A stretch of 50,428 bases of DNA from Nemertoderma westbladi (taxonomy: Eukaryota > Animalia > Xenacoelomorpha): the NCBI GenBank assembly GCA_032718475.1, contig JAUCBJ010005789.1:1-50428 (forward strand), read 5' to 3'. Position numbers and translations under genes: made by a program. The notes under the pieces were generated by a model that did no database searches, was not told where the DNA came from, and saw only the letters and a program-made list of their open reading frames with translations. This document shows positions 1 to 27,238 of this stretch, piece after piece (position 1 is the first letter of the stretch; every line of letters starts with the position of its first letter).

Positions 1-33
1 TCCTTGTGACATGAATTAAAATTAGAGTCTCCA

Positions 34-960
34 TACTACTACTACTACTAGGTCGAGCGAACTCGGACAGTGGAAATGAGATCCTTCCAGGCTTCCCGAT
101 TCTCCATAGTTGTCGCAATTTCGTTTCTTACAAGTCCAGTATCCCTTTCAAGTTGGTATTTATGTGTTATAGCAAGTCGTCCACCTTTTGTCTTTCCTTG
201 TGTTGGTTGCCAGAAAAGTAGATCTGGTATGACTACTTGCTTCTCCAGATATGAAATAAACAATATAACAACACAATGCCAGCGACAATTACTTCTGGTA
301 TTCCATAAGCTCTTAGTATTTCCAGCATTTTAACTCTTTCGATGGAGTACAATGCTTTCTGGAAATCCACAAATTCCTTTAACCAACCTCCTTAGCGCCA
401 GTATCTGAGCTATTGTTGATCTATTTGGTCGAAATCCGTTTTGGCTCTTACGCAGTAGTTTCTCTATGTGAGGCCTAATCCTATATAGAATCATTTTATT
501 GTATATTTTGGCAGCTACCACAAGCGGACAGATCCCACGATAGTTTGTTGGTATACCGAGGTCTCCTTTCTTGGGGAGAGGCTTTAGTTGACCTTTAGTC
601 CAAATTGGTGGTGGCTTTTCCCCTTTTAACATCCGGTTGCAAACATTCAATAATGGTCTATTTAGCACTCCGGTTTTCCATACCTCCGCTGGGATTTCAT
701 CTAATCCACTCGCTTTATTATTGGACATGCTTTTAATGCTTCTTTGGAGTTCGGCAGGTGTGAAGTCCCCTGTTTCTATAGGTAGTGCCTTGTCAGTTAC
801 TTTGCTTGCAGGGCAGACCTCGATGTTTGGTGGCTGCCAAAGCAAGTTGCTGAAGTGATCTTTCCATTTCCCAACACGTTCTTCAGGACTATCGGCTTTG
901 AGGCGCCCCTTTGCACAACTTTTCCAACCATATTTACCTCATTTACAATTTGACAGGTAA
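34..960 (-). mobile_element. Decayed, 5'-truncated and internally deleted RTE-like non-LTR retrotransposon
   Basis: The minus strand encodes ADSPEERVGKWKDHFSNLL...KASGLDEIPAEVWK...LPKKGDLGIPTNYRGI...QNGFRPNRST, then after a frameshift FVDFQKALYS...LRAYGIPE. It then jumps straight to the C-terminal LLFWQPTQGK...MENREAWKDLI, so the YADD region is missing. The stop codon is the first unit of a (TAG)n tail at 34-50, as is typical of RTE elements. Confidence 0.85.
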
Positions 961-1969
961 GTCTTGATTGTTGATATATGTAAGCAGATGTAATCCATGT
1001 TGTTATGAGGTGCAAGATGTGTTTAGTAATAAAATAAAGGTGCAAGAGGTGTTTAGTAAGTAATAAAATAAATAAAGAAAAGGTTATACTTTTCTAGGTC
1101 CAATTTTTCTATAACTATGGGTGCCGTGTATGTATATGTATATGTATATTTTATAAATTGGCAATATTTCTGTAATGATATTCTGCTGTCGTAATATGTG
1201 GACAAATAATAGATTTACGATTAATTGTATTATGGTATTATGTTGTTACTGTTATTGAGCTCTGGTGTTTTTGTCTAGTTATTATTTGCCAATAAACTAT
1301 CTATCTATCTAATGTCTTCAATTTTATCCTTTATATATATACTTCTCCTGGCTGGTGTTACAGTATAGGCCACTTTAAGACTTATTTAGCTTTCTCAACC
1401 TTGAAATGATTTCGGTTGTGGTTGTTCGGTTTTTACTTTGTAGGCTATCTTTAGATCTCCTCTCTTACAAAGTAAACTCATAGTCTTGCCATGTCACATG
1501 CTGCTTTTGTTTGGCTAATTTCTTGTAGGGCTTTATTTGGGCCTCTCACAAAGCTCTAAGGCCCCCATTCACTGTGGAGACAAGCTTGAATACGAAGCTA
1601 TTGTACATAATAAGACCCAATTCAAATTGGCTCCCTTCCCTGTAATATTTGTTAGAGCAACGCTGTACTGAGGCTTTAGGTTAGGCAAACCATCTCGCGG
1701 GCGATGTGATGTGAAGACAGCTTGAAGCAGCTGCCCGATGATCCAGTTTCACGCGTGGGTAGGTTTAACGGAAATAATACGCTGCTGCTACAAGCGAGAT
1801 ACAGTCACAGAGCACAGAGGGCTGAGGGCACTCAGCTTATTGTAATGAATGCAGTTTGGCTTCAAGCCTAACTTACTGTATAAGTTATTGAGTTATCTTG
1901 AGAGGCATGTGGTCAGTAAATTGGGGAGCGGGGAAAACGGATGCAGAGTATATTGGTGCAGCTTTGTAA

Positions 1970-2364
1970 CAGGCCCGTAGCCAGGATTTTAAAAGGGCGG
2001 TTCGTTTTTTCAAAAAAGGGCATTTCTTTAATTTGTAAAAATAATGACAAATATCCATTGGTTTAGCCAGGGTTGTGGATGGATGATCTGAAACTCGATA
2101 CGAAATGTGTGGGGCACTTTTTAAAGCATATTGATACTGGGATAATGTGAACCATAACTGTTCTATGCAGCTGCTAATGTAACTTTAACATTTGCTTTGC
2201 CGGAAAGGGCTCTTTTACGAATAAGTGAATATAAAAAGAGAATATTTCTCAAAAAGGTGAGTATAAAAAGGGCACATTTCCCAAACATCGGTTCATATAA
2301 AAGGGCACTTTTCTCAAAAGGGCGATTCGTTCGAACCAACGAAACCCCCCAGGCTATGGGCCTG
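1970..2364. mobile_element. 395-bp MITE / non-autonomous DNA transposon with 13-bp TIRs and 5-bp TSD
   Basis: Left end CAGGCCCGTAGCC and right end GGCTATGGGCCTG are inverted with 1 mismatch. TGTAA directly flanks both ends (1965-1969, 2365-2369). AAAAGGGC-like motifs recur internally. Confidence 0.8.
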
Positions 2365-3558
2365 TGTAATCCAAGACTAAACACTGCTTATTGTATGAGA
2401 GTGTTTGCATCATACTATCAATACATTATGTAGCTTCGCCAATAAAATGGAAATAAAATTAATGAATTTGTTATTATAATGCGGGTTTGTTTGACTGTAT
2501 ATTCTTATAAAAGGATTAATCGGATAGGCCCGGGCCTATATTGTATGTTAAATAAATATTAGAAATAAGTAACACAGGAAAGCCCCATTACACGGAAAAT
2601 ATTATATTTACTGTTATACGCAAGTGGAAGTGGGGCCAACTAACTGGTACCTATAGCATAGCTAGTGAAGGTGCCAGCCAGTTTTGAAGGGTATGGGATT
2701 GGCTACACCAAAGTCGAATTTCAAATTGAATGGCCCTGAAAACTCAAAGATTGTTGGGTTAATTAAGCCTTAATAGCGGCAGGTGATAGTAATTGTCCTG
2801 GGTTGCTGAGCGGGTCGAGTAGTTATGTATAGAAGAGGTTTTGGCGAAACGAAGGGCTATAGAGGACAAGGGATTAACAGTTTTAGAATTAATATCACAA
2901 ACAAACCTACTTGGTGTTTATAGAGAGATTTAAGAGGTAAATTACCTAGAGATTTGTATATAGAAGCAGACGAATATTGGTAGTGACTAAAGGTTATACT
3001 GTACATCTACTGTAATAAGTTTATAATACGTAATGATTTGAGTGTAGCATTATAAGTACCTCCACAAAGTAGAATACCGTAGTGCAGATAAGGTGAATTA
3101 GAGAAAATTAGAATGCGTAAAGGAAAAATATAACGAAGTTTATAGAATATACCTGATATTTTACTAATTTTACCTACGTCGGTCTTCCAATTTAACTGAT
3201 TATCTTCCCAAATTCCAAGAAATTTCGTACTTTCAGTACGTCTAACATAGCGCGCGATTATGGAATTTGGGTAGAATTATTTACTGTATGAGGGACACCA
3301 CAGGTTAGCGGTTCTAGAGAAGAGGTATGGTTATCATTTCATTTCATTCATTTAATAATCAAATAAGATTGATATTTAAAATATATATTATGCACAATAT
3401 ATTAAGTAAAATATGGTAGTACGTCCAGAGATAAAAAAAAAAGAACAACAATTATTACTAAAGATCACAAAGATAAATTCCGTGTATGGGCTGAAGATTT
3501 ACAATAATTTAACTGCAAAGTTTATAGGCAAAAGCACAAAAATACATAAAATAGCGTG

Positions 3559-6500
3559 TTAGTATTGGACAGCTGTGTATTCCATAATGCGTTTTATTTT
3601 TGATTCAAGCGAAATAGATCGTAATGAAAAGCAAGAGCCAATGAATTGATCAGTAACTATGTTTGACACTGTGGGTTTTCCTATTTCGATTTGAGCGATA
3701 AGCCCAGGTGAGTCATACTTATAGGTGAGGATCGATTCCAGTCCTGGCAAGGAGAATGACTTCCGTGCGCCGACATAACTACTGGTAAGACCTCTGTAGT
3801 CCATTGGGTTACTACGGTTCTTTATGATACAGAATCTGAAACCAAGTTGGAGAGGTGTGTTAGGACAGGACAAAGAACGGAAGATAGTGCTAACGGAATT
3901 GCGATACGCTTCAATGGATAGAGGTCTACAGTGAGTCACTTGATATAGTGTTGCATTACCAATATAAGAGCCAAGGTGCAGGAGGCTCCTCAGAACTTTC
4001 CTATAGTAGCAATCTAACTTATCCACCTCAGAGGCGCTGAATGCTCCAATGTTGAACTTAAGGGAGTTGAGTAGTACTGGTAAAACCAGTGATCGCCATA
4101 GCTTGAAAATAACAACAGGCTCAAGCCACTGCGTCGTCCAACCATTGGTGTGAAACACTTGAGACATCATCGCAAGTGTTTGTACGGAATCAGATAATGC
4201 AGTATCTGAGTTAGTTAATTTGTATCCAAGTATGCTAAGGTGGTTGGAATTAGTGACCAAGGTACCAGCAATGTTAATAAAGCATGGGATATGTGCTTTG
4301 GTTCGGTGAATCATACACCATTTCGTTTTACTAGACTCTATGATTAGGTTGACCCGAGAAGCCTCAACTTTGATTATTTCCGACATTGCTTCAATGTCTG
4401 CAGGTGATGTCGCCAGTAATAAAAAGTCATCTGCATATGTAAAGGCGCCAAACCAAACCGAGTTTATTCTGCAGCCTAACTGAGAGTCCTCAAGACCTTT
4501 GATAATGCCCTTTGTGTATAAGTTAAACAGTGCTGGTGATAATAGGGAGCCCTGTTTCACACCATGCCGGACCCCGATTGGTGTAAGGTCGACGCGGTTT
4601 CCAAACTTAAGAAAGATGCAACTACATTGGTAGTAAGCTAGAAGAGTTCGAACAACATAAGGGTTGATGACTTCCAATAGTTTGTCGGCCAATATAAAAT
4701 GGTCCACTTCATCAAACGCTGACTTGAGATCGAGCTGACATACAAAAATATTAGAGTTGTTGGAGAGAAAATATTCAATGCATTCTAACATCGTACCGAT
4801 AACAATGTCTGTACCTATCCCTTTTTTATAAGCTGTCTGATGGTCATGGGTAAGAATCGGGCCCAAGTAGTGCACCAGGACGATACGTTCAAATACCTTA
4901 GCAAAAATGCTGATGGATGCTATAGGCCTATAAGATGTTGGTTCCAGTTTGTCTTTACCTTTCCCTTTAAAGAGGCTTGTAAGCAAAGAATGACCAAATA
5001 AAGATGGGACAGCGCCTAGGGAAAAGCAATTATTAATAATTTGACTCAATACATGGCAAATGGGATATGGGTCAAGATGGAGCAGGTGTTCCGCTGTAAG
5101 GGATGCACAGTCGGCGGCTTTCCTTTTAGAAAGGTTGAGTATAGCCTTCTGAATAGCGAGAGGTGAGATATTTGGCGGAGTAGAGTCACTACATGCTGTT
5201 TCAAGTTTGTCGTACATATTCCCGGCTTTGACAGGGTCATCATCATGTGATAAGTTTTTGTAGTAATGTGTTCTCAATTTGGATTGTGTGGACAATGGTA
5301 TTGGATCCTCCTGTGTTTTCCTCTTTATATTGCTCCAGAAGTGTCTCGGGTTGCTGCTGTGAATGCGCATCTGCTTGTGGACTCTGTTAGCAACTATATT
5401 TTTGCTGAGAAAATTTTTCATCCGGCGAGTGGCCCGTTTAGAATCCTTAAATGCAGTTCTAACAGCATCATCCTCATTTTTGCCCTGTTGACACCAAAGT
5501 TTATATAACTGGGAAGTAGTTTGGCTTCGCCTGCGTAGCATATTCGAGCGTATACGAATATTCCTGCTCAACCTAAGTGGCCTACGTGTTGGTATATGGG
5601 CATTAGCTGCATTAAATATTGCATCCTGGACCTGAATCATTTGATAATCGAGATTGGCCACAGATGAGTTACCGTTTGGTGATTTGTGATGGAGAAGGGT
5701 GCACAAAACTTTATTCACATCATCTTTATAATTTTCTATCTGTTTTTCACTAGCTCTATCCCAGTCGAAATGACGTAAGTTTCGAGTAGCACAGTGTACC
5801 TTAGTATCTATATCACTATCCTTATTGGGAGTGGTGGGGCCTATGGAGATATTCACAGCAATGGGAACATGATCTGAGAAATTTGTGACTGGGTCATCAT
5901 CAAAGACACGGCCAGTGTCTATCCAGGGAATGCACCTAGTAGTTGTTATAATGTGGTCAATATATGACTGTCCCCGCCCTCTAAAAGTACAGCAGGGACC
6001 AGTGAATGGTTGTAGTGTGTCAATGGCTGTCATTTTATTCGATTCAAGAAAGGCATGCAACATGTTTCCCCAAGGTGTAGCAGTAGCCCTTGCATATCGG
6101 GGTCCTTGCAATGGTCCAAGATCTGCATTTGTGTCAGCCAGAATGAAGGGTATATGAGAGTCATGTTGCTTCACAATAGCCTGCAATCGTCCAAGGAAAT
6201 CCTTATATAATAAGCTATCTTTATTTGCATCTGGTGCATAGCAGGACAATAAAAGAAGTTTCTCTTGATTGGAATCATCAGTCACCATTGTTATTCCCAC
6301 AATGTCATCACCAGATGAGACACAGGACCAATTGGTTGTAAGACTCTTTTTGAAGAATAGTGCACAGCCACCAGCACCTCGGCGTCTGTTAGGGTTGTTC
6401 ATTAGTCTACTAGATATGTGTACACAATGAAAATTATTGTCAAGAGTTTTCAAGAGATTTACACATTCAGTTTTATCGAGCCAATGTTCCTGTATTGCTA

Positions 6501-6723
6501 CGACATTGTGCTTGGTAAGTAGATCTGCAATATAGTGGCTACTGGTGGAGAACCCACGTACATTGTATGTTGCAAGACTTAGATGTGTGTAGCTATTATT
6601 CAACTTATCTTCTTCAGCAGCAAAGGAGACTGTGTTAAACCAATTGTCGGGCCTCAACAGGTCTTCGATACTGTCTGTGGTAATCTGTCTGCTCCCAGAA
6701 CTTGGACTTGTAGATCCACTCAC
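3559..6723 (-). CDS. LINE ORF2: AP-like endonuclease + reverse transcriptase
   Basis: Uninterrupted 1054 codons. Endonuclease motifs: TYNVRG, AIQEHWL, SCYAP, LADTNAD, SYIDHI, FSDHVP. RT motifs: LTAEHL, SYRPIAS, DLKSAFDEVDH, GVKQGSLLSPALFNLY, YADDFLL. No C-terminal CCHC finger is visible. The listed start is GTG, so the true start is uncertain. Confidence 0.95.
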   Translation of the reverse strand: MSGSTSPSSGSRQITTDSIEDLLRPDNWFNTVSFAAEEDKLNNSYTHLSLATYNVRGFSTSSHYIADLLTKHNVVAIQEHWLDKTECVNLLKTLDNNFHCVHISSRLMNNPNRRRGAGGCALFFKKSLTTNWSCVSSGDDIVGITMVTDDSNQEKLLLLSCYAPDANKDSLLYKDFLGRLQAIVKQHDSHIPFILADTNADLGPLQGPRYARATATPWGNMLHAFLESNKMTAIDTLQPFTGPCCTFRGRGQSYIDHIITTTRCIPWIDTGRVFDDDPVTNFSDHVPIAVNISIGPTTPNKDSDIDTKVHCATRNLRHFDWDRASEKQIENYKDDVNKVLCTLLHHKSPNGNSSVANLDYQMIQVQDAIFNAANAHIPTRRPLRLSRNIRIRSNMLRRRSQTTSQLYKLWCQQGKNEDDAVRTAFKDSKRATRRMKNFLSKNIVANRVHKQMRIHSSNPRHFWSNIKRKTQEDPIPLSTQSKLRTHYYKNLSHDDDPVKAGNMYDKLETACSDSTPPNISPLAIQKAILNLSKRKAADCASLTAEHLLHLDPYPICHVLSQIINNCFSLGAVPSLFGHSLLTSLFKGKGKDKLEPTSYRPIASISIFAKVFERIVLVHYLGPILTHDHQTAYKKGIGTDIVIGTMLECIEYFLSNNSNIFVCQLDLKSAFDEVDHFILADKLLEVINPYVVRTLLAYYQCSCIFLKFGNRVDLTPIGVRHGVKQGSLLSPALFNLYTKGIIKGLEDSQLGCRINSVWFGAFTYADDFLLLATSPADIEAMSEIIKVEASRVNLIIESSKTKWCMIHRTKAHIPCFINIAGTLVTNSNHLSILGYKLTNSDTALSDSVQTLAMMSQVFHTNGWTTQWLEPVVIFKLWRSLVLPVLLNSLKFNIGAFSASEVDKLDCYYRKVLRSLLHLGSYIGNATLYQVTHCRPLSIEAYRNSVSTIFRSLSCPNTPLQLGFRFCIIKNRSNPMDYRGLTSSYVGARKSFSLPGLESILTYKYDSPGLIAQIEIGKPTVSNIVTDQFIGSCFSLRSISLESKIKRIMEYTAVQY

Positions 6724-8590
6724 GACAGTGTATACCTTCCGGCCAGAAATATGGATTCAATAATCGTTCAAGGTTATTCAAGTCAGTAACTATTCTCATG
6801 TTTTTGGAATTTCTATCCTTGTCAAACCTTGTTGTTATGCGCTCAGTGTTAACATTCCTCTCTGATAGATAAGCAATAACATCCTCTTCGGAGTTGCCAC
6901 AGTTTATTCGACTGACAAATACCGAGGTTTTCCTCTTCACTTCAGTAGGTCGCAGTTGCGAAGGTCTATTTGGAGTATAGTTTGGTGGCTTTGTTACATT
7001 TCCTCGCACATCTACACATGCTCCTACATCTTTAATATTTGTAGCTTTCTGATTTACTAAGTTGGATTTGCTTAGTAGTTCCCTAGGGGTAAGCTGCGCT
7101 CTTGATTTAGTGGAAGATTTGGCGGAGAGGGGATTGTTTACATGGCCAGATGGTTCTGAAAGAGGTGCGTATCTGCTTCCAACTGGAATGCTGCCCTTCT
7201 TGCTACTGTTGAGATTTGGACGTGGTGGTTTAGGTTTAGCAGTATGCCTATGGTCCGGTGTTATCCATGTGCCTCCACTGAGAGGTTTGACACAGTTATG
7301 ATATCTCATATTTTCTTGAGATGGAGTCTTGAGCTGTGGATGAACCACTCTAGGTGGGCTATGAGCAATATGTTTAGGGGAAATCGAGTCCACAACAATA
7401 TACCTATCAGGAGATGGAGTCCTTTTTGGCAGGATAACAGAATTAGACTTTTCTGACTTTTCCACTGATGTTAGTTGAATTAATGTCTGTTCTAATCTTC
7501 CTAGTTGGCCTTGAAGGATTACTCGATTATGGCGTTCCAGGCTTAGTTCCTCTTGTATGCCTTTGATATTTTCATGGAGTGATATATTATCTTTTTCTAC
7601 TATGGCAAGCCTGGTTTGAATAGTAGATATGGCACTAAGAAAATCGTTTCTTAAAGAAGTTAAAGTGTATTCATCATCTGCAGTGTCAGCCTTTCTTAGA
7701 CGCTTTCTACAAGGTTCGGTTAGAAGCTTTTCGTGTAGACAGCGAAGAAGCTCAAAAATGTCATTAGCTACCTCAGCTGGTGATGATCGTGGTTTCAACT
7801 GCAGAGTAAAACTCTGTGTGGGTGTAAGGAATGGCTTGATAGACTGAAATAACTCATCCCGTTTGGCAAAATTATCTTTTATATCATTCTGAAGTATTTG
7901 CCGTATTGCTTCTTTCCTAGGGTGGGACATGAGGTCTATATCTATGTTTGTTTGGTTTAAATTTATTTTCGTGTCCATTGCTGATATCAATGGTGGAGAA
8001 GCAGATGTATTGATATTTATGTCCCTGATGCAATGTTGCAGCCAATTGCGTAGTTCATTACTATCTGAATATACTGGTTGTATGGTTGCACAGTCAGTAG
8101 ATAAGGCAAGGGCATACAAGCATACAAATGCACCACAGTCATATCCATTATGTTGCTTCGGGAATGGTGAAATGTAGGACTCATCAACTTTCCAAGGTTC
8201 AGAGCTATGATTGATCTTGTGGACAAGATTGAGTAGTTTACAGATAGTATGGGTTGTACTGTTTGCTGCTGTTTTGTTCATGCTGCATAGTGTATAAACT
8301 GATTTGGTTTGATTATCTGCTACATGTAGAACGAAGTGGGATCTGATGCATTCAGGAAATAGCATTAGTGGCATTGTAGCTGTGTTACAGACACAAGTAA
8401 TGTAGGAAATAGCACTGGACACATCGAAGTTGAACTGATTCAGTTTATCACACAGTGCAGAGTCAATGCACGCGACACTATCTACTCTGCGATCAAGTAT
8501 GGAAAGAAAAGAGTCCACAATAAGCGTGGACAGAAATTGGTCTTCTTTAAAGTAAGCCCAGTCAGGGTCACATGGCTTAAGGAGAACCAA
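6635..8590 (-). CDS. LINE ORF1: N-terminal Ulp1/SENP-like (peptidase C48) domain + coiled coil + disordered linker + C-terminal RRM-like domain
   Basis: FPECIRSHFVLHVAD...VYTLCSM...FPKQHNGYDCGAFVCLYA matches the Ulp1 pattern. A heptad-rich LRNDFL...LEQTLIQL segment follows. SVFVSRI...EEDVIAYL...LLNPYFWPEGIHCREW is the usual LINE ORF1 C-terminal motif. The listed start is TTG; the frame stays open about 29 codons further upstream without an ATG. Confidence 0.88.
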   Translation of the reverse strand: MVLLKPCDPDWAYFKEDQFLSTLIVDSFLSILDRRVDSVACIDSALCDKLNQFNFDVSSAISYITCVCNTATMPLMLFPECIRSHFVLHVADNQTKSVYTLCSMNKTAANSTTHTICKLLNLVHKINHSSEPWKVDESYISPFPKQHNGYDCGAFVCLYALALSTDCATIQPVYSDSNELRNWLQHCIRDININTSASPPLISAMDTKINLNQTNIDIDLMSHPRKEAIRQILQNDIKDNFAKRDELFQSIKPFLTPTQSFTLQLKPRSSPAEVANDIFELLRCLHEKLLTEPCRKRLRKADTADDEYTLTSLRNDFLSAISTIQTRLAIVEKDNISLHENIKGIQEELSLERHNRVILQGQLGRLEQTLIQLTSVEKSEKSNSVILPKRTPSPDRYIVVDSISPKHIAHSPPRVVHPQLKTPSQENMRYHNCVKPLSGGTWITPDHRHTAKPKPPRPNLNSSKKGSIPVGSRYAPLSEPSGHVNNPLSAKSSTKSRAQLTPRELLSKSNLVNQKATNIKDVGACVDVRGNVTKPPNYTPNRPSQLRPTEVKRKTSVFVSRINCGNSEEDVIAYLSERNVNTERITTRFDKDRNSKNMRIVTDLNNLERLLNPYFWPEGIHCREWIYKSKFWEQTDYHRQYRRPVEARQLV

Positions 8591-8704
8591 TCCCCGCTTC
8601 CTAGGCTGTGATGTGGCTGCACATACTACTGCTTCATCATTGAATCCTCGACTAAGGTCAGGGTAACTGGCACAAATTCAACATCTGATGAGCCCGATTC
8701 TCAC

Positions 8705-9190
8705 GATATGTCACGTGAGTGAATCCCTGGTATATGTCACGTGAGTGAATCCCTGGTATATGTCACGTGAGTGAATCCCTGGTATATGTCACGTCAATGG
8801 ATCTCTGGTATATGTCACGTCAGTGAATCCCTGGAGCATGTCACGTGAGTGAATCTGGTATATGTCACGTGAATTAATCCCTGGTATATGTCACGTGAGT
8901 GAATAAATCCCTGGTATATGTCACGTGAGTGAATCCCTGGTATTTGTCACGTGGATGAATCCCTGGTATATGTCACGTGAGTGAATCCCTGGTATTTGTC
9001 ACGTGGATGAATCCCTGGTATATGTCACGTGAGTGAATCCCTGGTATATGTCACGTGAGTGAATTCCTGTTATATGTCATGTGAGTGAATCCCTGGTATA
9101 TGTCACGTGATTGAATCCCTGTTATATCACGTGGTTGAATCCCTGGTATAGGTCACGTGAGTGAATCCTTGCTATATCACGTTGTTGAAT
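8705..9190. repeat. 26-bp minisatellite (TATATGTCACGTGAGTGAATCCCTGG)n, about 18-19 copies
   Basis: Period 26 read directly (TCACGTGAGT at 8711 and 8737). The array degenerates toward 9190-9240. Confidence 0.95.
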
Positions 9191-9292
9191 CTATATTATG
9201 AGTCGTGCTCTCGTGAGTTAGTAAATGTAATGTCACGGGAATGGATCATTGTTTGTATCACATGACTTTACTCACTTGCGTTTTTTGGACAG

Positions 9293-9484
9293 GCGGTAGG
9301 TGACGAGGGTATACAAGCGGTCGCCTCAAGCTGTCATCTACTTTCCTTCCTCTGTCTGTCTGGCTGCACCAATCTCACAGATGTTTCTCTCCACGCTTTA
9401 ACCACAGGCTGTAAGGACCTAAGGACCCTGGAACTAGCAGGTTGCGCCCAGTTTACCGACAACGGATTCCAGACGTTAGCTAGG
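9293..9484 (+). CDS. FBXL20: F-box/LRR-repeat protein FBXL2/FBXL20 family, internal exon
   Basis: ttttttggacAG|AVGDEGIQAVASSCHLLSFLCLSGCTNLTDVSLHALTTGCKDLRTLELAGCAQFTDNGFQTLAR|GTtggt; cysteine-containing LRRs; phase 0. FBXL2 versus FBXL20 cannot be resolved here. Confidence 0.9.
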
Positions 9485-9736: not shown

Positions 9737-9838
9737 ATATGCAACCAGTTACAACGGATTGACCTTGAGGAATGCATACTACTAACTGATCAAAGCCTTA
9801 ATCACTTTGCAATATTCCTATCGCACCTCGAGCAATTG
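9737..9838 (+). CDS. FBXL20: FBXL2/FBXL20 family internal exon
   Basis: tttAG|ICNQLQRIDLEECILLTDQSLNHFAIFLSHLEQL|GTGAGT; matches the family DLEEC motif; phase 0. Confidence 0.92.
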
Positions 9839-10043
9839 GTGAGTCATAGTCTGCTATTTGTTAAGCTCACATCAGACTTCTGGCTGACGTCTCGCTCACA
9901 TCAGACTTCTTCTGACATCTGGCTTTACCTTTTGGAGACACGAGTAGATTTATGGAGGATTAAAAGAGTTTTGTTTGTTTATAATATTTGCATTGAAATT
10001 ATACATTATTTGTATTATAGTAAGTTCTTATGATAATTATGCC

Positions 10044-10645: not shown

Positions 10646-11314
10646 ATCACCTTAACTTTTGTATATCCCCCAGAGTCTCTCACTGTGAGTTAATCACCTT
10701 AACTTTTGTATATCCCCCAGAGTATCTCACTGTTAGTTAATCACCTTAACTTTTGTATATCCCCAGAGTCTATCTCACTGTGAGTTAATCACCTTAACTT
10801 TTGTATATCCCCCAGAGTCTCTCACTGTTAGTTAATCACCTTAACTTTTGTATATCCCCCAGAGTCTCTCACTGTTAGTTAATCACCTTAACTTTTGTAT
10901 ATCCCCCAGAGTCTCTCACTGTGAGTTAATCACCTTAACTTTTGTATATCCCCCAGAGTATCTCACTGTTAGTTAATCACCTTAACTTTTGTATATCCCC
11001 AGAGTCTATCTCACTGTGAGTTAATCACCTTAACTTTTGTATATCCCCCAGAGTCTCTCACTGTTAGTTAATCACCTTAACTTTTGTATATCCCCCAGAG
11101 TCTCTCACTGTTAGTTAATCACCTTAACTTTTGTATATCCCCAGAGTCTATCTCACTGTGAGTTAATCAACTTAACTTTTGTATATCCCCCAGAGTCTCT
11201 CACTGTTAGTTAATCACCTTAACTTTTGTATATCCCCCAGAGTCTCTCACTGTTAGTTAATCACCCTAACTTTTGTATATCCCCCAGAGTCTATCTCACT
11301 GTGAGTTAATCACC
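10646..11314 (+). repeat. 47-48-bp tandem repeat (14 copies) made of an intron 3' end plus the first ~27 nt of the next exon
   Basis: Unit ATCACCTTAACTTTTGTATATCCCCCAG|AGTCT(AT)CTCACTGT(G/T)AGTTA. The last copy is the real acceptor at 11286-11287. Confidence 0.95.
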
Positions 11315-11500
11315 GATGAAGGTATTCGCCACCTTGGAAGTGCACCCTCCGCTCCGGAACACCTGCGGGTTATCGAGTTAGACAACTGTCCGTTGATAAC
11401 GGACGCGTCATTGGAACACCTCTCGGGCTGTCTCAGTCTGGGACGGATTGAGTTGTACGACTGTCAGCTTATATCCCGGATGGGGATACGTAAATTGAGG
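11288..11500 (+). CDS. FBXL20: FBXL2/FBXL20 family penultimate coding exon
   Basis: cccccAG|SLSHCELITDEGIRHLGSAPSAPEHLRVIELDNCPLITDASLEHLSGCLSLGRIELYDCQLISRMGIRKLR|GTAAGT; closely matches the family motifs SLSHCELITD, ELDNCPLITD and ELYDCQ. Confidence 0.96.
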
Positions 11501-11591
11501 GTAAGTTAAGTTTCAAATATTTACTAATAATTAATTTATTAGACTTTCTATCACTAAAACTAGTTAAGAGAAAATCTTTCCGTACTTGCAC

Positions 11592-11860: not shown

Positions 11861-13029
11861 ATGATAGTTTCCATAGTTAATAAGTAATACTGCACTGGAG
11901 CAAATTTCATTATTATTATTACTCAAACTCTATTTATACTTTAGTAGTTTAGTTTCATTATTTTACAACTTTAAGTCAGAGAAAATCCCATCTCACTACT
12001 CACTTGGTAACTTTGCTCACTTTATGGGATATAAACACTACGCCGACAATGACAAATATGAAACTATAACCTGTTCTAATGACTCACGTATTGTTTTGGT
12101 TATAATAACCTTCTACTGTAACCTGTTTCTTCTCCTCACTTGTAATTGATAGTAATTATTAATTATCATTAATATACGTTGTCGGTTTTTGTTGTCGGTT
12201 GTCGGCGTATACATATTTCTACAATGTTAGATAATCTTTGCTGAGATTAGGTTAAGTGATTCTGTTCAATGCGTTGTGGTCGGGTTTTTTTTTTTATTTT
12301 TTTGCAATAATTGTATTATTAAGTTTATTAAATAATTTTAAAATATAACAATAATTGTAATATTATTTATTATAATGCTATACAAAGTTTGTAATACCTA
12401 GGGCAATAGAACAATTCAAAAATTGTTTATGTTTGTAATATTTCCGAAATAAAATCAATGTGATAATAGCAATGTTGTAATTACGACCTAATAATAATTA
12501 ACTCTCCCCACAGACCTGCCCTGCCTACATGTTCAGGATTCACTTTACTAATTCTGACTAATTCTAAATAGACTAGAAGGTAGAACACCCTATATAAAAT
12601 TTTTCGATTTTGAGGTTTTGATCGATTCCGGGGAAATCGGTGGTGCTCTTTCTCGTGGTGTTGTCCGTTTTACCGTATCTCCACCCGTTACAGGTCTCAA
12701 TACCGTGAAAAATACCCTATGTAGCCTTTTTTGGAACAATATAGTATATTATCTTGTGGTAAACACAGAATTCGACATAGGGTATATTTCAATTGCACAT
12801 AGAGTGTTCTGACTAGAGAGTATAATGATAGGGTGTTTTGCAAACTCGTATATTAATACGTAATTGGATATTAAATAATGTTCTGTAACATTCCTAAGGA
12901 GTAATATAGAGGTACAATAAGAAATTAACCACCATAATAGCACATTCAAACAGGACGACTAAGAGAAACAGGACGACTAGGAGAATGAACAGGGAGTTGT
13001 TAACCGGAAATGGTGATGGGCCAGGTTTT

Positions 13030-16000
13030 GTGGAGGTGATGGAGTAGATGAACAGTGGATGTCGGAGGTAGATGGAGTGGGTGGACAGGGGATGTCGGAG
13101 GATATATATGGAGTGGGTGGACAGGGGATGTTGGAGGTAGATGGAGTGGGTGGACAGGGGTTGTCGGAGGTAGATAGAGTGGGTGGACAGGGGATGTCGA
13201 GGGTAGATTGAGTAGATGAACATGGGATGTCAGAGGTAGATGGAGTGGGTGGACAGGGCATGTCGGGGGATATTTATGGAATGGGTGGACAGGGGATGTC
13301 AGAGGTAGATGGAGTGGGTGGACAGGGGATGTCGAGGGTAGATTGAGTAGATGAACAGGGGATGTCGGAGGTAGATGGAGTGGATCGACATGGGATGTCG
13401 AGGGTAGATTGAGTAGATGGACAGGGGATGTCAGAGGTAGATGGAGTTGGTGGACGGGGGATGTCGGAGGTAGATGGAGTGGATGGACAGGGGATGTCGG
13501 AGGTAGATGGATTGGGTGGACATGGGATGTTGGAGGTAGATGGAGTGGGTGGAAAGGAGGTGTTGTTAGAGGTAGATGGAGTGGATCGACATGGGATGTC
13601 GAGGGTAGATTGAGTAGATGGACAGGGGATGTCAGAGGTAGATGGAGTTGGTGGACAGGGGATGTTGGAGGTAGATGGAGTGGGTGGACAGGTGATGTCG
13701 AGGGTAGATTGAGTAGATGAACAGGGGATGTCTGAGGTAGACGGAGTGGCTAGACAGGGGATGTCAGAGGTAGATTGAGTGGATGGACATGGGATGTCGG
13801 AGGTAGATGAAGTTGGTGGACGGGGGATGTCGGAGGTAGATGGAGTGGATGGACAGGGGATGTCGGAGGTAGATGAAGTTGGTGGACGGGGGATGTCGGA
13901 GGTAGATGAAGTTGGTGGACAGGGGATGTTGGAGGTAGATGGAGTGGGTGGACATGGGATGTTGGAGGTAGATGGAGTGGGTGGAAAGGAGGTGTTGGAG
14001 TTAGATGGATTGGGTGGATAAGGATGTCGGAGGTAGATGGATTGGGTGGACAGGGGATGTTGGAGGTAGATGGAGTGGATGGACAGGGGATGTCGAGATT
14101 GATGGAGTGGGTGGACAGGGGATGTTGGAGGTATATGGAGTGGGTGGACAGGGGATGTCGGAGGTAGATGGAGTGGAATGACAGGGAATGTCGAGATTGA
14201 TGGAGTGGGTGGACAGGGGATGTTGGAGGTAGATGGATTGGGTGGACAGGGGATGTCGAGGGTAAATGGAGTAGATGAACAGGGGATGTCGGAGGTAGAT
14301 GAAGTTGGTGGGCGGGGGGATGTGGAGATTGATGGAGTGGATGGACAGGGGATGTTGGAGGTAGATGGATTGGGTGGACAGGGGATGTTGGAGGTAGATG
14401 GAGTAGATGAACAGGGTGGGTCGGGGGTAGATTGAATGGGTGGACAGGAGGTGTTGGAGGTAGATGGAGTGGGTGGACAGGGGATGTCAGAAGTAGATGG
14501 AGTGGGTGGACAGGGGATGTTGGAGGTAGATGGATTGGGTGGACAGGGAATGTTGGAGGTAGTTGGAGTGGGTGGACGGGGATGTCAGAAGTAGATGGAG
14601 TGGGTGGACAGGGGATGTTGGAGGTAGATGGATTGGGTGGATAAGGGATGTCGGAGGTAGATGGATTGGGTGGACAGGGAATGTTGGAGGTAGATGGATT
14701 GGGTGGACAGGGGATGTCAGAAGTAGATGGAGTGGGTGGACAGGGGATGTTGGAGGTAGATGGATTGGGTGGACAGGGGATGTTGGAGGTAGATGGAGTG
14801 GGTGGACAGGGGATGTCAGAAGTAGATGGAGTGGGTGGACAGGGGATGTCAGAAGTAGATGGAGTGGGTGGACAGGGGATGTTGGAGGTAGATGGATTGG
14901 GTGGATAAGGGATGTCAGAGGTAGATGGATTGGGTGGACAGGGGATGTTGGAGGTAGATAGAGTGGGTGGACAGGGGATGTCAGAAGTAGATGGAGTGGG
15001 TGGACAGGGGATGTTGGAGGTAGATGGATTGGGTGGATAAGGGATGTCGGAGGTAGATGGATTGGGTGGACAGGGGATGTTGGAGGTAGATGGAGTGGGT
15101 GGACAGGGGATGTCAGAAGTAGATGGAGTGGGTGGACAGGGGATGTTGGAGGTAGATGGATTGGGTGGATAAGGGATGTCGGAGGTAGATGGATTGGGTG
15201 GACAGGGGATGTTGGAGGTAGATGGATTGGTTGGACAGGGGATGTTGAAGGTAGATGGAGTGGGTGGACAGGGGATGTCAGAAGTAGATGGAGTGGGTGG
15301 ACAGGGGATGTTGGAGGTAGATGGATTGGGTGGATAAGGGATGTCGGAGGTAGATGGATTTGGTGGACAGGAGGTGTTGGAGGTAGATGGATTGGGTGGA
15401 CAGGGGATGTTGGAGATAGATAGATTGGATGGACAGGGGATGTCAGAAGTAGATGGATTGGGTGGACAGGGGATGTCAGAAGTAGATGGAGTGGGTGGAC
15501 AGGGGATGTTGGAGGTAGATGGATTGGGTGGATAAGGGATGTCGGAGGTAGATGGAGTGCGTGGACAGGGGATGTCAGAAGTAGATGGAGTGGGTGGACA
15601 GGGGATGTTGGAGGTAGATGGATTGGGTGGATAAGGGATGTCGGAGGTAGATGGATTGGGTGGACAGGAGGTGTTGGAGGTAGATGGATTGGGTGGACAG
15701 GAGGTGTTGGAGGTAGATGGAGTGGGTGGACAGGGGATGTTGGAGGTAGATGGATTGGGTGGATAAGGGATGTCGGAGGTAGATGGATTGGGTGGACAGG
15801 GGATGTTGGAGGTAGATGGAGTGGGTGGACAGGGGATGTCAGAAGTAGATGGAGTGGGTGGACAGGGAATGTTGGAGGTAGATGGATTGGGTGGACAGGG
15901 GATGTCGGAGGTAGATGGATTGGGTGGACAGGGGATGTTGGAGGTAGATGGATTGGTTGGACAGGGGATGTTGAAGGTAGATGGAGTGGGTGGACAGGGG

Positions 16001-19000
16001 ATGTCAGAAGTAGATGGAGTGGGTGGACAGGGGATGTCAGAAGTAGATGGAGTGGGTGGACAGGGGATGTTGGAGGTAGATGGATTGGGTGGATAAGGGA
16101 TGTCGGAGGTAGATGGATTTGGTGGACAGGAGGTGTTGGAGGTAGATGGAGTGGGTGGACAGGGGATGTTGGAGATAGATAGATTGGATGGACAGGGTAT
16201 GTCAGAAGTAGATGGATTGGGTGGACAGGGGATGTCAGAAGTAGATGGAGTGGGTGGACAGGGGATGTTGGAGGTAGATGGATTGGGTGGATAAGGGATG
16301 TCGGAGGTAGATGGAGTGGGTGGACAGGGGATGTTGGAGGTAGATGGATTGGGTGGATAAGGGATGTCGGAGGTAGATGGATTGGGTGGACAGGGGATGT
16401 TGGAGGTAGATGGAGTGGGTGGAAAGGAGGTGTTGGAGGTAGATGGAGTGGGTGGACAGGGGATGTTGGAGGTAGATGGAGTGGATGGACAGGGGATGTC
16501 GAGATTGATGGAGTGGGTGGACAGGGGATGTCGGAGGTAGATGGAGTGGAATGACAGGGAATGTCGAGATTGATGGAGTGGGTGGACAGGGGATGTTGGA
16601 GGTAGATGGATTGGGTGGACAGGGGATGTCGAGGGTAAATGGAGTAGATGAACAGGGGATGTCGGAGGTAGATGAAGTTGGTGGGCGGGGGGATGTCGAG
16701 ATTGGTGGAGTGGATGGACAGGGGATGTTGGAGGTAGATGGATTGGGTGGACAGGGGATGTTGGAGGTAGATGGAGTAGATGAACAGGGTGGGTCGGGGG
16801 TAGATTGAATGGGTGGACAGGAGGTGTTGGAGGTAGATGGAGTGGGTGGACAGGGGATGTCAGAAGTAGATGGAGTGGGTGGACAGGGGATGTTGGAGGT
16901 AGATGGATTGGGTGGACAGGGAATGTTGGAGGTAGATGGAGTGGGTGGACGGGGATGTCAGAAGTAGATGGAGTGGGTGGACAGGGGATGTTGGAGGTAG
17001 ATGGATTGGGTGGATAAGGGATGTCGGAGGTAGATGGATTGGGTGGACAGGGAATGTTGGAGGTAGATGGATTGGGTGGACAGGGGATGTCAGAAGTAGA
17101 TGGAGTGGGTGGACAGGGGATGTTGGAGGTAGATGGATTGGGTGGACAGGGGATGTTGGAGGTAGATGGAGTGGGTGGACAGGGGATGTCAGAAGTAGAT
17201 GGAGTGGGTGGACAGGGGATGTCAGAAGTAGATGGAGTGGGTGGACAGGGGATGTTGGAGGTAGATGGATTGGGTGGATAAGGGATGTCAGAGGTAGATG
17301 GATTGGGTGGACAGGGGATGTTGGAGGTAGATAGAGTGGGTGGACAGGGGATGTCAGAAGTAGATGGAGTGGGTGGACAGGGGATGTTGGAGGTAGATGG
17401 ATTGGGTGGATAAGGGATGTCGGAGGTAGATGGATTGGGTGGACAGGGGATGTTGGAGGTAGATGGAGTGGGTGGACAGGGGATGTCAGAAGTAGACTGA
17501 GTGGGTGGACAGGGGATGTTGGAGGTAGATGGATTGGGTGGATAAGGGATGTCGGAGGTAGATGGATTGGGTGGACAGGGGATGTTGGAGGTAGATGGAT
17601 TGGTTGGACAGGGGATGTTGAAGGTAGATGGAGTGGGTGGACAGGGGATGTCAGAAGTAGATGGAGTGGGTGGACAGGGGATGTTGGAGGTAGATGGATT
17701 GGGTGGATAAGGGATGTCGGAGGTAGATGGATTTGGTGGACAGGAGGTGTTGGAGGTAGATGGATTGGGTGGACAGGGGATGTTGGAGATAGATAGATTG
17801 GATGGACAGGGGATGTCAGAAGTAGATGGATTGGGTGGACAGGGGATGTCAGAAGTAGATGGAGTGGGTGGACAGGGGATGTTGGAGGTAGATGGATTGG
17901 GTGGATAAGGGATGTCGGAGGTAGATGGAGTGCGTGGACAGGGGATGTCAGAAGTAGATGGAGTGGGTGGACAGGGGATGTTGGAGGTAGATGGATTGGG
18001 TGGATAAGGGATGTCGGAGGTAGATGGATTGGGTGGACAGGAGGTGTTGGAGGTAGATGGATTGGGTGGACAGGAGGTGTTGGAGGTAGATGGAGTGGGT
18101 GGACAGGGGATGTTGGAGGTAGATGGATTGGGTGGATAAGGGATGTCGGAGGTAGATGGATTGGGTGGACAGGGGATGTTGGAGGTAGATGGAGTGGGTG
18201 GACAGGGGATGTCAGAAGTAGATGGAGTGGGTGGACAGGGAATGTTGGAGGTAGATGGATTGGGTGGACAGGGGATGTCGGAGGTAGATGGATTGGGTGG
18301 ACAGGGGATGTTGGAGGTAGATGGATTGGTTGGACAGGGGATGTTGAAGGTAGATGGAGTGGGTGGACAGGGGATGTCAGAAGTAGATGGAGTGGGTGGA
18401 CAGGGGATGTCAGAAGTAGATGGAGTGGGTGGACAGGGGATGTTGGAGGTAGATGGATTGGGTGGATAAGGGATGTCGGAGGTAGATGGATTTGGTGGAC
18501 AGGAGGTGTTGGAGGTAGATGGAGTGGGTGGACAGGGGATGTTGGAGATAGATAGATTGGATGGACAGGGTATGTCAGAAGTAGATGGATTGGGTGGACA
18601 GGGGATGTCAGAAGTAGATGGAGTGGGTGGACAGGGGATGTTGGAGGTAGATGGATTGGGTGGATAAGGGATGTCGGAGGTAGATGGAGTGGGTGGACAG
18701 GGGATGTTGGAGGTAGATGGATTGGGTGGATAAGGGATGTCGGAGGTAGATGGATTGGGTGGACAGGGGATGTTGGAGGTAGATGGAGTGGGTGGAAAGG
18801 AGGTGTTGGAGGTAGATGGAGTGGGTGGACAGGGGATGTTGGAGGTAGATGGAGTAGATGAACAGGGTGTATCGGGGGTAGATTGAATGGGTGGACAGGA
18901 GGTGTTGGAGTTAGATGGATTGGGTGGATAAGGATGTCGGAGGTAGATGGATTGGGTGGACAGGGGATGTTGGAGGTAGATGGAGTGGATGGACAGGGGA

Positions 19001-22000
19001 TGTCGAGATTGATGGAGTGGGTGGACAGGGGATGTCGGAGGTAGATGGAGTGGAATGACAGGGAATGTCGAGATTGATGGAGTGGGTGGACAGGGGATGT
19101 TGGAGGTAGATGGATTGGGTGGACAGGGGATGTCGAGGGTAAATGGAGTAGATGAACAGGGGATGTCGGAGGTAGATGAAGTTGGTGGGCGGGGGGATGT
19201 CGAGATTGGTGGAGTGGATGGACAGGGGATGTTGGAGGTAGATGGATTGGGTGGACAGGGGATGTTGGAGGTAGATGGAGTAGATGAACAGGGTGGGTCG
19301 GGGGTAGATTGAATGGGTGGACAGGAGGTGTTGGAGGTAGATGGAGTGGGTGGACAGGGGATGTCAGAAGTAGATGGAGTGGGTGGACAGGGGATGTTGG
19401 AGGTAGATGGATTGGGTGGACAGGGAATGTTGGAGGTAGATGGAGTGGGTGGACGGGGATGTCAGAAGTAGATGGAGTGGGTGGACAGGGGATGTTGGAG
19501 GTAGATGGATTGGGTGGATAAGGGATGTCGGAGGTAGATGGATTGGGTGGACAGGGAATGTTGGAGGTAGATGGATTGGGTGGACAGGGGATGTCAGAAG
19601 TAGATGGAGTGGGTGGACAGGGGATGTTGGAGGTAGATGGATTGGGTGGACAGGGGATGTTGGAGGTAGATGGAGTGGGTGGACAGGGGATGTCAGAAGT
19701 AGATGGAGTGGGTGGACAGGGGATGTCAGAAGTAGATGGAGTGGGTGGACAGGGGATGTTGGAGGTAGATGGATTGGGTGGATAAGGGATGTCAGAGGTA
19801 GATGGATTGGGTGGACAGGGGATGTTGGAGGTAGATAGAGTGGGTGGACAGGGGATGTCAGAAGTAGATGGAGTGGGTGGACAGGGGATGTTGGAGGTAG
19901 ATGGATTGGGTGGATAAGGGATGTCGGAGGTAGATGGATTGGGTGGACAGGGGATGTTGGAGGTAGATGGAGTGGGTGGACAGGGGATGTCAGAAGTAGA
20001 CTGAGTGGGTGGACAGGGGATGTTGGAGGTAGATGGATTGGGTGGATAAGGGATGTCGGAGGTAGATGGATTGGGTGGACAGGGGATGTTGGAGGTAGAT
20101 GGATTGGTTGGACAGGGGATGTTGAAGGTAGATGGAGTGGGTGGACAGGGGATGTCAGAAGTAGATGGAGTGGGTGGACAGGGGATGTTGGAGGTAGATG
20201 GATTGGGTGGATAAGGGATGTCGGAGGTAGATGGATTTGGTGGACAGGAGGTGTTGGAGGTAGATGGATTGGGTGGACAGGGGATGTTGGAGATAGATAG
20301 ATTGGATGGACAGGGGATGTCAGAAGTAGATGGATTGGGTGGACAGGGGATGTCAGAAGTAGATGGAGTGGGTGGACAGGGGATGTTGGAGGTAGATGGA
20401 TTGGGTGGATAAGGGATGTCGGAGGTAGATGGAGTGCGTGGACAGGGGATGTCAGAAGTAGATGGAGTGGGTGGACAGGGGATGTTGGAGGTAGATGGAT
20501 TGGGTGGATAAGGGATGTCGGAGGTAGATGGATTGGGTGGACAGGAGGTGTTGGAGGTAGATGGATTGGGTGGACAGGAGGTGTTGGAGGTAGATGGAGT
20601 GGGTGGACAGGGGATGTTGGAGGTAGATGGATTGGGTGGATAAGGGATGTCGGAGGTAGATGGATTGGGTGGACAGGGGATGTTGGAGGTAGATGGAGTG
20701 GGTGGACAGGGGATGTCAGAAGTAGATGGAGTGGGTGGACAGGGAATGTTGGAGGTAGATGGATTGGGTGGACAGGGGATGTCGGAGGTAGATGGATTGG
20801 GTGGACAGGGGATGTTGGAGGTAGATGGATTGGTTGGACAGGGGATGTTGAAGGTAGATGGAGTGGGTGGACAGGGGATGTCAGAAGTAGATGGAGTGGG
20901 TGGACAGGGGATGTCAGAAGTAGATGGAGTGGGTGGACAGGGGATGTTGGAGGTAGATGGATTGGGTGGATAAGGGATGTCGGAGGTAGATGGATTTGGT
21001 GGACAGGAGGTGTTGGAGGTAGATGGAGTGGGTGGACAGGGGATGTTGGAGATAGATAGATTGGATGGACAGGGTATGTCAGAAGTAGATGGATTGGGTG
21101 GACAGGGGATGTCAGAAGTAGATGGAGTGGGTGGACAGGGGATGTTGGAGGTAGATGGATTGGGTGGATAAGGGATGTCGGAGGTAGATGGAGTGGGTGG
21201 ACAGGGGATGTTGGAGGTAGATGGATTGGGTGGATAAGGGATGTCGGAGGTAGATGGATTGGGTGGACAGGGGATGTTGGAGGTAGATGGAGTGGGTGGA
21301 AAGGAGGTGTTGGAGGTAGATGGAGTGGGTGGACAGGGGATGTTGGAGGTAGATGGAGTAGATGAACAGGGTGTATCGGGGGTAGATTGAATGGGTGGAC
21401 AGGAGGTGTTGGAGTTAGATGGATTGGGTGGATAAGGATGTCGGAGGTAGATGGATTGGGTGGACAGGGGATGTTGGAGGTAGATGGAGTGGATGGACAG
21501 GGGATGTCGAGATTGATGGAGTGGGTGGACAGGGGATGTCGGAGGTAGATGGAGTGGAATGACAGGGAATGTCGAGATTGATGGAGTGGGTGGACAGGGG
21601 ATGTTGGAGGTAGATGGATTGGGTGGACAGGGGATGTCGAGGGTAAATGGAGTAGATGAACAGGGGATGTCGGAGGTAGATGAAGTTGGTGGGCGGGGGG
21701 ATGTCGAGATTGGTGGAGTGGATGGACAGGGGATGTTGGAGGTAGATGGATTGGGTGGACAGGGGATGTTGGAGGTAGATGGAGTAGATGAACAGGGTGG
21801 GTCGGGGGTAGATTGAATGGGTGGACAGGAGGTGTTGGAGGTAGATGGAGTGGGTGGACAGGGGATGTCAGAAGTAGATGGAGTGGGTGGACTGGGGATG
21901 TTGGAGGTAGATGGATTGGGTGGACAGGGAATGTTGGAGGTAGATGGAGTGGGTGGACGGGGATGTCAGAAGTAGATGGAGTGGGTGGACAGGGGATGTT

Positions 22001-26900: not shown

Positions 26901-27238
26901 TAAAGGATTTGATAATGTTTATGATCTGGATGGAGAGAATAACATCGTACCAACAGTTAGCATATCCACGAAATCAGGGGATTTTGCATGGTAATGCCAC
27001 ACCACCAGCACAAAGCAGATGTCGATCTCCCGATGATAGACGTATTTGGGACTCTCATAAACACGCATTGCGCGATGCTGGTTGCAAATATAAGTGCAAG
27101 TTAGGCTGTAAAGAGAAGATGAATGGTGAACATCATCAGGATATTCAAGATAGCTACTGGAGTTTACATAGTAATGAACGTAAGCAGCTTCTAATGAGTT
27201 TTTTGAAAAAGTTTTTACTACATATTTCTCTGGTATAA
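26900..27238 (+). pseudogene. Transposase N-terminal remnant (Sola-like Cys motif)
   Basis: GCKYKCKLGCKEKMNGEHHQDIQDSYWSLHSNERKQLLMSF resembles the C-x-C-x3-C...I...(F/Y)W.L...Q motif I recall from Sola1-type transposases. It is truncated right afterwards and has no catalytic core. Confidence 0.5.

Follow-up and report, generated by a model that had tools for sequence, protein, structure and literature searches.

The window, that is the whole stretch of 50,428 nucleotides taken from contig JAUCBJ010005789.1 of Nemertoderma westbladi, contains on its minus strand a LINE element whose parts are collected in Table 1. The element has APE followed by reverse transcriptase (RT) in ORF2, a coiled coil and an RRM in ORF1, and a simple-repeat 3' tail, as is characteristic of LINEs. 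On the plus strand lie the exons of a host gene, which is presumably FBXL20/FBXL2-like by similarity; apart from the exon given in the table they are found at about 9738-9839, about 11290-11501 and about 28500. In one contig of run X4 the 9293-9484 exon is spliced directly onto the next exon and onto one from further upstream, and because the latter was not found in positions 1-3300 of the window, the LINE is placed antisense within a long host intron. In a comparison of 3290-3345 with 8691-9300 for a target-site duplication, no word of at least 8 bases is shared; many LINE clades make short duplications or none.

Table 1. Features of the element and of its surroundings in the window
Feature	Position	Strand	Remarks
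Exon of the host gene, presumably FBXL20/FBXL2-like	9293..9484	+	Preceding intron contains the LINE in antisense orientation
26-bp minisatellite, 18 copies, abutting the 5' junction	8706..9177	none	Likely host intron DNA, not part of the element
5' end of the window copy, likely 5' truncation point	8664..8702	-	Contig comparison
ORF1 reading frame, 680 codons from stop to stop	8677..6635	-	ORF scan
C48 (Ulp1/SENP)-fold domain, ORF1-frame residues 28-222	8012..8596	-	Profile, sequence and predicted fold
ORF1 helical N-terminal region (residues about 250-330) and predicted coiled coil (336-412)	7442..7930	-	
RRM-like domain, residues about 583-653, with the FWPEGI-CREW end motif	6719..6931	-	Common to 32 ORF1-like database proteins
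ORF2, 1065 codons; APE about 6579-5857, reverse transcriptase 4950-4219	3559..6756	-	
3' UTR with short (AAATG/AATG)n tail at about 3353-3335	3335..3558	-	Sequence

Several further observations concern the surroundings of the element. Very large intronic minisatellites are present in this animal DNA, and the G-skewed and C-skewed arrays at 13000-27000 and 31000-43000 are huge, with long stop-free frames that are not genes. The minisatellite next to the element was considered as a coding sequence and rejected, as it has a 26-bp unit and stops in all three frames. Another tandem array, with a 47-bp unit (10646-11314), comprises 14 copies of a splice acceptor together with the first bases of the next FBXL20-like exon, which read SLSHCELIT, and the exon continues only from the last copy. 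A second LINE fragment, which we take to be RTE-like, lies on the minus strand at 35-938 (RVT_1 E 5e-7, with a (TAG)n tail near 35-50), and a tail similar to (TAG)n is found attached, at 8653, to a further copy of the main element. Run X4, apparently labelled as DNA, looks cDNA-derived or contains a processed copy since the host exons are joined in it without introns; the LINE 3' end 3454-3815 is also included in this run, with 1 difference. Its contigs do not reach the C48-fold domain, from which nothing follows.

ORF1 residues 234-680 have the make-up of a normal LINE ORF1, with a helical region followed by the coiled coil, then a disordered linker and finally an RRM. In the predicted structure long helices occupy residues 336-412, and a beta-alpha-beta-beta-alpha-beta domain with pLDDT of about 98 occupies 583-653; the best PDB match of the profile of this end is the RRM protein hnRNP D-like (E 4e-4). 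It had been proposed in a preliminary description of this DNA that the frame runs on from a protease-like domain into a coiled coil and an RRM-like end with FWPEGI, and this is borne out, all the motifs named there lying in one stop-free minus-strand frame (8677..6635). ORF2 is open over 6756..3559 and contains RVT_1 at residues 603-846 (E 2.8e-23). Its APE motifs are YNVRG at 64, QEHW at 89, DTN at 208, IDHI at 266 and SDH at 294, with the invariant D208, D267 and H296; the Pfam APE families gave no score on ORF2, and an alignment from APE through RT was obtained with P0048 (PF03372 + PF00078, E 6e-39). The ORF2 described earlier as intact is an open frame with both domains, but it has no in-frame AUG before the APE motifs (first Met at 119, first motif at 64). 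It overlaps ORF1 by about 120 nt (6756-6635) in the +1 frame, and the contigs across this overlap have no gaps; on the sequence, frameshifting or a non-AUG restart would be needed for ORF2. In the relative P0050 the same RRM is fused to APE-RT in one frame. The ORF2 RT has 12 database relatives with 24-35% identity, and in a tree of 13 unlabelled RTs it stands, as P0002, on a long, unresolved branch near P0048, P0049, P0050 and P0055. These four are presumably RTEX/Proto2-like, and the 3' tail of the element is one that we take to be L2-like; no clade labels are given in the supplement of PMC11203168.

Ahead of the complete ORF1, the frame carries a domain which matches Pfam PF02902 over 8021-8620 with E 6.4e-5 and 23.3 bits against a curated cut-off of 20.7, the whole ORF1 frame giving 20.2 bits, just under this value. 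The score is low for the family: 12 fuller C48 homologs reach 44-103 bits compared with 23 here. In a phmmer search the domain matches yeast Ulp1 (1EUV, E 2.8e-5), and all of its PDB matches (13/13) are Ulp1/SENP. The AlphaFold model of the domain has pLDDT 87 and pTM 0.86; Foldseek pairs it with SENP5 (TM 0.79, E 2e-9), and in a structure comparison SENP5 reaches Z 23.5 with rmsd 2.2 A over 184 residues, within Z 19.9-23.5 for SENP5, SENP3, SENP1 and Ulp1. Since the alignment given to the model was made of 12 of the 13 C48 matches, the fragment P0033 being omitted, fold and sequence match are not independent results. As modelled, the domain fused to ORF1 is of the C48 fold, clan CE, partly led by the homolog alignment. 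The preliminary description had recognised this fold by eye, and a profile match above the cut-off, the phmmer and Foldseek results and the SENP5-like predicted structure all agree with it. Compared with SENP5, SENP3, SENP1 and yeast Ulp1 (PDB 9GNN, 9ME8, 2G4D and 1EUV), the same fold extends over the whole domain and the His, Gln and Cys are present, whereas identity amounts to 17-20%, and the acid residue and both Trp are replaced. A host SENP gene interrupted by a LINE was considered as another origin of the match and rejected: there are no introns, the ORF1 frame is shared and the junction is common to copies.

His114 (8338-8336), Gln175 (8155-8153) and Cys181 (8137-8135) all stand at the expected catalytic places. 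They had been named earlier as His85, Gln146 and Cys152, which are the right residues counted from a TTG (8590) and not from an AUG. What had been overlooked is that the triad is incomplete, the position of the catalytic Asp being occupied by Cys131 (8287-8285; YVDS in Ulp1 versus TLCS in the element). The substitutions can be judged against 79 homologs from the matches listed, namely 12 proteins and 67 non-identical ORF segments from 83 loci, each covering at least 95 profile positions. In this set the acid column reads D in 71, N in 5 and A, E and T in 1 each, with C in 0, that is D, N or E in 77/79. The Trp that follows the His is W in 77/79 of these listed homologs (Phe115 in the element) and the first tunnel Trp in 53/79 (Phe48); both are conservative changes at the two Trp positions of the Gly-Gly tunnel. 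The Asp of the WLxD motif, D in 47 and N in 12 of the 79 listed, is Thr in the element, and the Phe of the SFF motif, F in 33, L in 10 and Y in 9, is Ala; we take both of these positions to contact SUMO. His114, Gln175, Asn177, Asp180, Cys181 and Gly182 are each the commonest residue among the same 79 from the matches listed. A protein of 281 residues, P0030, resembles the element in its FLS motif and has Thr where the catalytic Asp would stand (23% identity over 207 residues).

In SENP1, C603A, H533A and D550A each severely reduce SUMO1 hydrolysis (PMC9268427, accessible part), and the Trp after the catalytic His has been linked to diglycine preference (PMC6759571, likewise in part); no passage on the catalytic Asp was found in the accessible portion of PMC2172760. 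By its fold the domain belongs with C48, yet its triad is not that of the family, the third residue being Cys instead of Asp. The working deSUMOylase suggested earlier is thus not supported as stated, given the change of Asp to Cys131, that of the Trp after His to Phe, and the D550A precedent in the available text of PMC9268427. With one catalytic residue swapped for Cys, a weak or re-targeted remover of ubiquitin-like (Ubl) tags would be a likelier description than an ordinary SUMO protease.

Between 80 and 85% of the element's words are present in three runs (X1, X2 and X3) from two samples. X1 comes from a different study from X2/X3, while X2 and X3 are one sample, contain window-identical pieces including the 5' junction and may not be independent. 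Contig depth is higher over the domain than over the host exon in X1-X3, which is not a copy number, and all counts of variants in contigs are lower bounds because contigs drop rare variants and can be mosaics of copies. Contig 6 of X1 (848 bp) covers 7835-8681 and so spans the domain and its junction to ORF1; it has 10 substitutions and 1 indel, an extra base at 8664, with no listed stop or frameshift inside the domain. Compared with the window, X1 shows 0/566 differences in host-side bases and 1/2165 over 5556-7720, and both window-type and variant versions occur in it at 7703-7864; against these values the 10 substitutions indicate that contig 6 is likely another copy and not an allele. Contigs leave the element for unrelated DNA at 8063, 8262, 8640 and 8701, and a different flank is seen also at 3334 (contigs only), a pattern of break points that would fit dispersed, 5'-truncated copies of an RNA including the domain. 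One dead version was found in sample S2, in which residue 162 is a stop, two bases are missing at 8134 next to the Cys181 codon and one base is added at 8578. A diverged relative in X1 and X3 matches only 8093-8140, and the ten codons before this match read RTYPKQDNTF, compared with SPFPKQHNGY in the window; P-K-Q-x-N before D-C-G is kept, so that the catalytic-loop motif has been retained at depth somewhere in the genome. The runs also contain a diverged sister family, about 85-90% alike in the ORF1 helical region (7792-7929) and in the ORF2 C-terminal region (3973-4434), which no listed contig links to the C48 domain. It had been asked whether the domain is a one-off chimera, and the diverged X1 contig across the junction and the several break points answer this in favour of other copies: as judged from the contigs, the fusion of the domain to ORF1 is real and a family trait.

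Purifying selection had also been named as a point to check. Over residues 28-222, 7/14 substitutions among the contigs are synonymous, where 3.6 would be expected for the types of change involved (P about 0.04), in a test that is small and on contigs that may be mosaics of copies. Contig 6 of X1 taken alone gives 4/8 (P 0.11), the domain core gives 6/10 (P 0.01, for a region chosen after seeing the data), and ORF1 residues 223-342 give 7/11 against 3.2 expected (P 0.016). The signal in the substitutions is weak, and it points towards constraint.

There is no in-frame AUG in the ORF1 frame before residue 102, which itself lies inside the C48 domain. The extra base at 8664 is found in all of the X1 depth; with it, the upstream frame becomes one reading ESGSSDVEFVPV in the window, closed by a TGA at the junction with the 26-bp minisatellite. 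The string SSDVEFV, of low information, resembles what we take to be the consensus of a SUMO-interacting motif. Beyond 8701 one contig in each of X1, X2 and X3 continues with DNA unlike the window, and we infer that the extra base and the continuation are on the same contig. This alternative continuation is stop-free over ten codons (30 letters, by eye), for which there are about even odds by chance. Most simply, the window copy can be read as having lost its 5' part at 8701; the true N-terminus, possibly accompanied by further domains, would then lie outside the window. Such a copy likely could not make the domain protein from a normal start and is probably not a source of it.

A full HMMER scan of the 680 residues against 1.84 billion representatives gave 45 matches of one stretch each, of which 13 fall on the C48 domain and 32 on the RRM end. 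Pfam C48 is found in 13/13 of the former and 0/32 of the latter, many of which are fragments, and no protein with both C48 and the ORF1-RRM occurs among the 45. On the metagenome side 83 C48-bearing loci were compared (3 viral and the best 80 of 170 confirmed, among at least 595 matches): neither the ORF1-RRM nor APE stands beside C48 in any of the 83, a weak negative since many of the loci are short. An RT-profile match was obtained in 2 of these 83 (the 3 viral and the best 80 of 170 confirmed), and both were rejected as RT-C48 loci, since L029 lacks a Pfam RT domain and L045 has only a short piece of RT, on the opposite strand. Three metagenome contigs contain hAT-type transposase-like ORFs (hAT dimerisation domain or DUF659) with a C-terminal C48: L011:1603-4902, L017:1019-2848 and L008:253-2661. 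Word-indexed homolog searches returned no matches when the query was the whole of ORF1 or, at E 1e-20, the whole of ORF2, an exact 30-base pattern from the domain had 0 matches in metagenome contigs, and no relative was found for ORF2 among viral contigs or for ORF1 among prokaryote genomes. For the ORF1 homolog P0005, the ESM Atlas contains eukaryote clusters, two with PHD and none displayed with C48.

In the literature searched, from which most subscription papers were absent, Ulp1 on non-LTR elements was found only for NeSL/Utopia, and a word search of the main text of PMC5203782 and PMC13343379 gave no protease, peptidase, Ulp1, OTU or SUMO. The doubt expressed earlier about novelty is met in part: no curated family with the same layout was found in the searchable sources, but absence from print is not established, because Repbase, Dfam and most subscription papers were outside the search and the searched databases are poor in animal repeats. 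An Ulp1-bearing non-LTR element is known; the searchable sources gave no other case in which Ulp1 is placed on ORF1 in an APE element and has a His-Cys-Cys site.

The explanation that we prefer, tentatively, is that the C48-fold domain fused ahead of the complete ORF1 may be a weak or re-targeted Cys-His protease which trims Ubl tags at the RNP. From full-length copies a single protein would be made, beginning with an AUG that lies upstream of 8701. L1 ORF1p multimerises on RNA through its coiled coil; if the ORF1p of this element likewise multimerises and coats the element's RNA, there would be many protease domains per particle, and this could offset a low rate. The substrate would be a Gly-Gly-ended tag (SUMO, NEDD8 or ubiquitin) bound otherwise than in the textbook SENP mode, and the Cys-His pair would give weak or altered activity on such tags. 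A ubiquitin-like substrate is favoured as a prior because mobile elements have captured Ulp1 and OTU domains repeatedly (PMC2836005; their recurrence is also covered by PMC4640811, both in the accessible parts). A bolder version, that of an APE-LINE lineage with an active His-Cys-Cys clan-CE protease on each ORF1p, which would strip host SUMO or ubiquitin from the particle or nearby chromatin or would mature a frameshifted protease-ORF1-APE-RT polyprotein in a virus-like manner, is in our judgement doubtful.

The state of the active site can also be read without any cutting at all, the module being catalytically dead and yet selected, so that it binds a Ubl tag or another host protein or scaffolds ORF1p. 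The acid residue is lost in every covering contig (no variant at 8285-8287, nor at His114 or Gln175 in the contigs that cover them), there is a weak synonymous excess and the fold is intact in the model, all of which would suit such a module; yet nucleophile, base and oxyanion residues are kept, and the surface residues that a binder would need are the ones changed, and we regard this reading as unlikely. The low profile score, the five changes at conserved positions, the dead version in sample S2 and the absence of a second example among the 32 ORF1 homologs could instead point to a decaying relic: a protease would have been taken up from some other element or gene, and stops would be absent from it only because ORF1 has to be read through it. 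Against decay stand the synonymous excess over the domain and its core (the latter a post hoc region) and the catalytic-loop motif kept in the diverged relative, which leave it improbable.

Viral clan-CE proteases process their own proteins, and a protease that cuts its own ORF1, or a frameshifted ORF1-ORF2 polyprotein, after Gly-Gly would account for an ORF2 that overlaps ORF1 in the +1 frame without an AUG of its own before the APE motifs, and for the fused arrangement in P0050. The sole Gly-Gly in ORF1 is at 468-469, in the disordered linker, and reads LSGG-T, which we take to fit the adenovirus protease pattern. The same pattern is present in 2/19 ORF1 homologs without a protease, so that one such site is near chance, and no frameshift signal was identified in the ORF1/ORF2 overlap; self-processing appears quite unlikely. 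Finally, the domain and ORF1 might not be one protein. The AUG at residue 234 (7978) has a strong context, the best among the in-frame AUGs, and begins the canonical part of ORF1, of a normal size of 447 residues, and in the window copy no AUG precedes the domain; the C48 stretch would then be a captured 5' fragment, in frame by chance. But 18 AUGs precede the one at 7978 (between 8720 and 7979), the 233 codons are stop-free and in frame, and the domain has a synonymous excess, which makes this very unlikely.

The accessory domains of ORF1 tell something of the host factors on which a LINE particle depends or which threaten it, and a protease would be a new entry beside PHD, zinc knuckle and esterase. 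It would also be a further independent capture of Ulp1 by a mobile element, here by an APE retrotransposon. Action against SUMO-dependent silencing is a proposed role of transposon Ulp1, as far as the sources are accessible, and for the present element, to which the preliminary description extended it, it is a hypothesis. The domain, with its 195 residues and its naturally occurring change of Asp to Cys, offers a small and convenient case for a test. If the domain is inactive, it still documents the retuning or decay of captured enzymes.

Among known elements, Dualen/RandI is likewise reported to encode APE together with a cysteine protease, of another fold (Josephin-like, deubiquitylase-type), in a single ORF that also carries a restriction-like endonuclease (RLE). 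Ulp1 domains on non-LTR elements with a restriction-like endonuclease are described for the NeSL elements of nematodes and for Utopia-1_TSP, whose single ORF combines zinc fingers and RT with a restriction-like endonuclease at the C-terminus (PMC4640811, accessible part). The single-ORF layout without APE is not that of the present element, which has two ORFs, an APE endonuclease, the protease on ORF1 and Cys at the catalytic Asp position. In Ginger1 and Mutator a C48 domain is likewise found on a mobile element and a role in transposition has been proposed; these are DNA transposons, and in Ginger1 the C48 is C-terminal on the transposase (PMC2836005, in the text available). The ORF1 types of the CR1/L2 lineage have PHD, RRM, CCHC, Tnp22 or esterase as accessory domains, and the table of ORF1 domains for 448 Repbase Jockey-superfamily elements has no protease entry in the accessible part of the same source (PMC4120745). 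Two close relatives of the element's ORF1, P0018 and P0022, carry an N-terminal PHD. Like the ORF1s of the CR1/L2 lineage (PMC4120745, accessible part), the element described here adds an accessory domain to an ORF1 of the coiled-coil/RRM kind.
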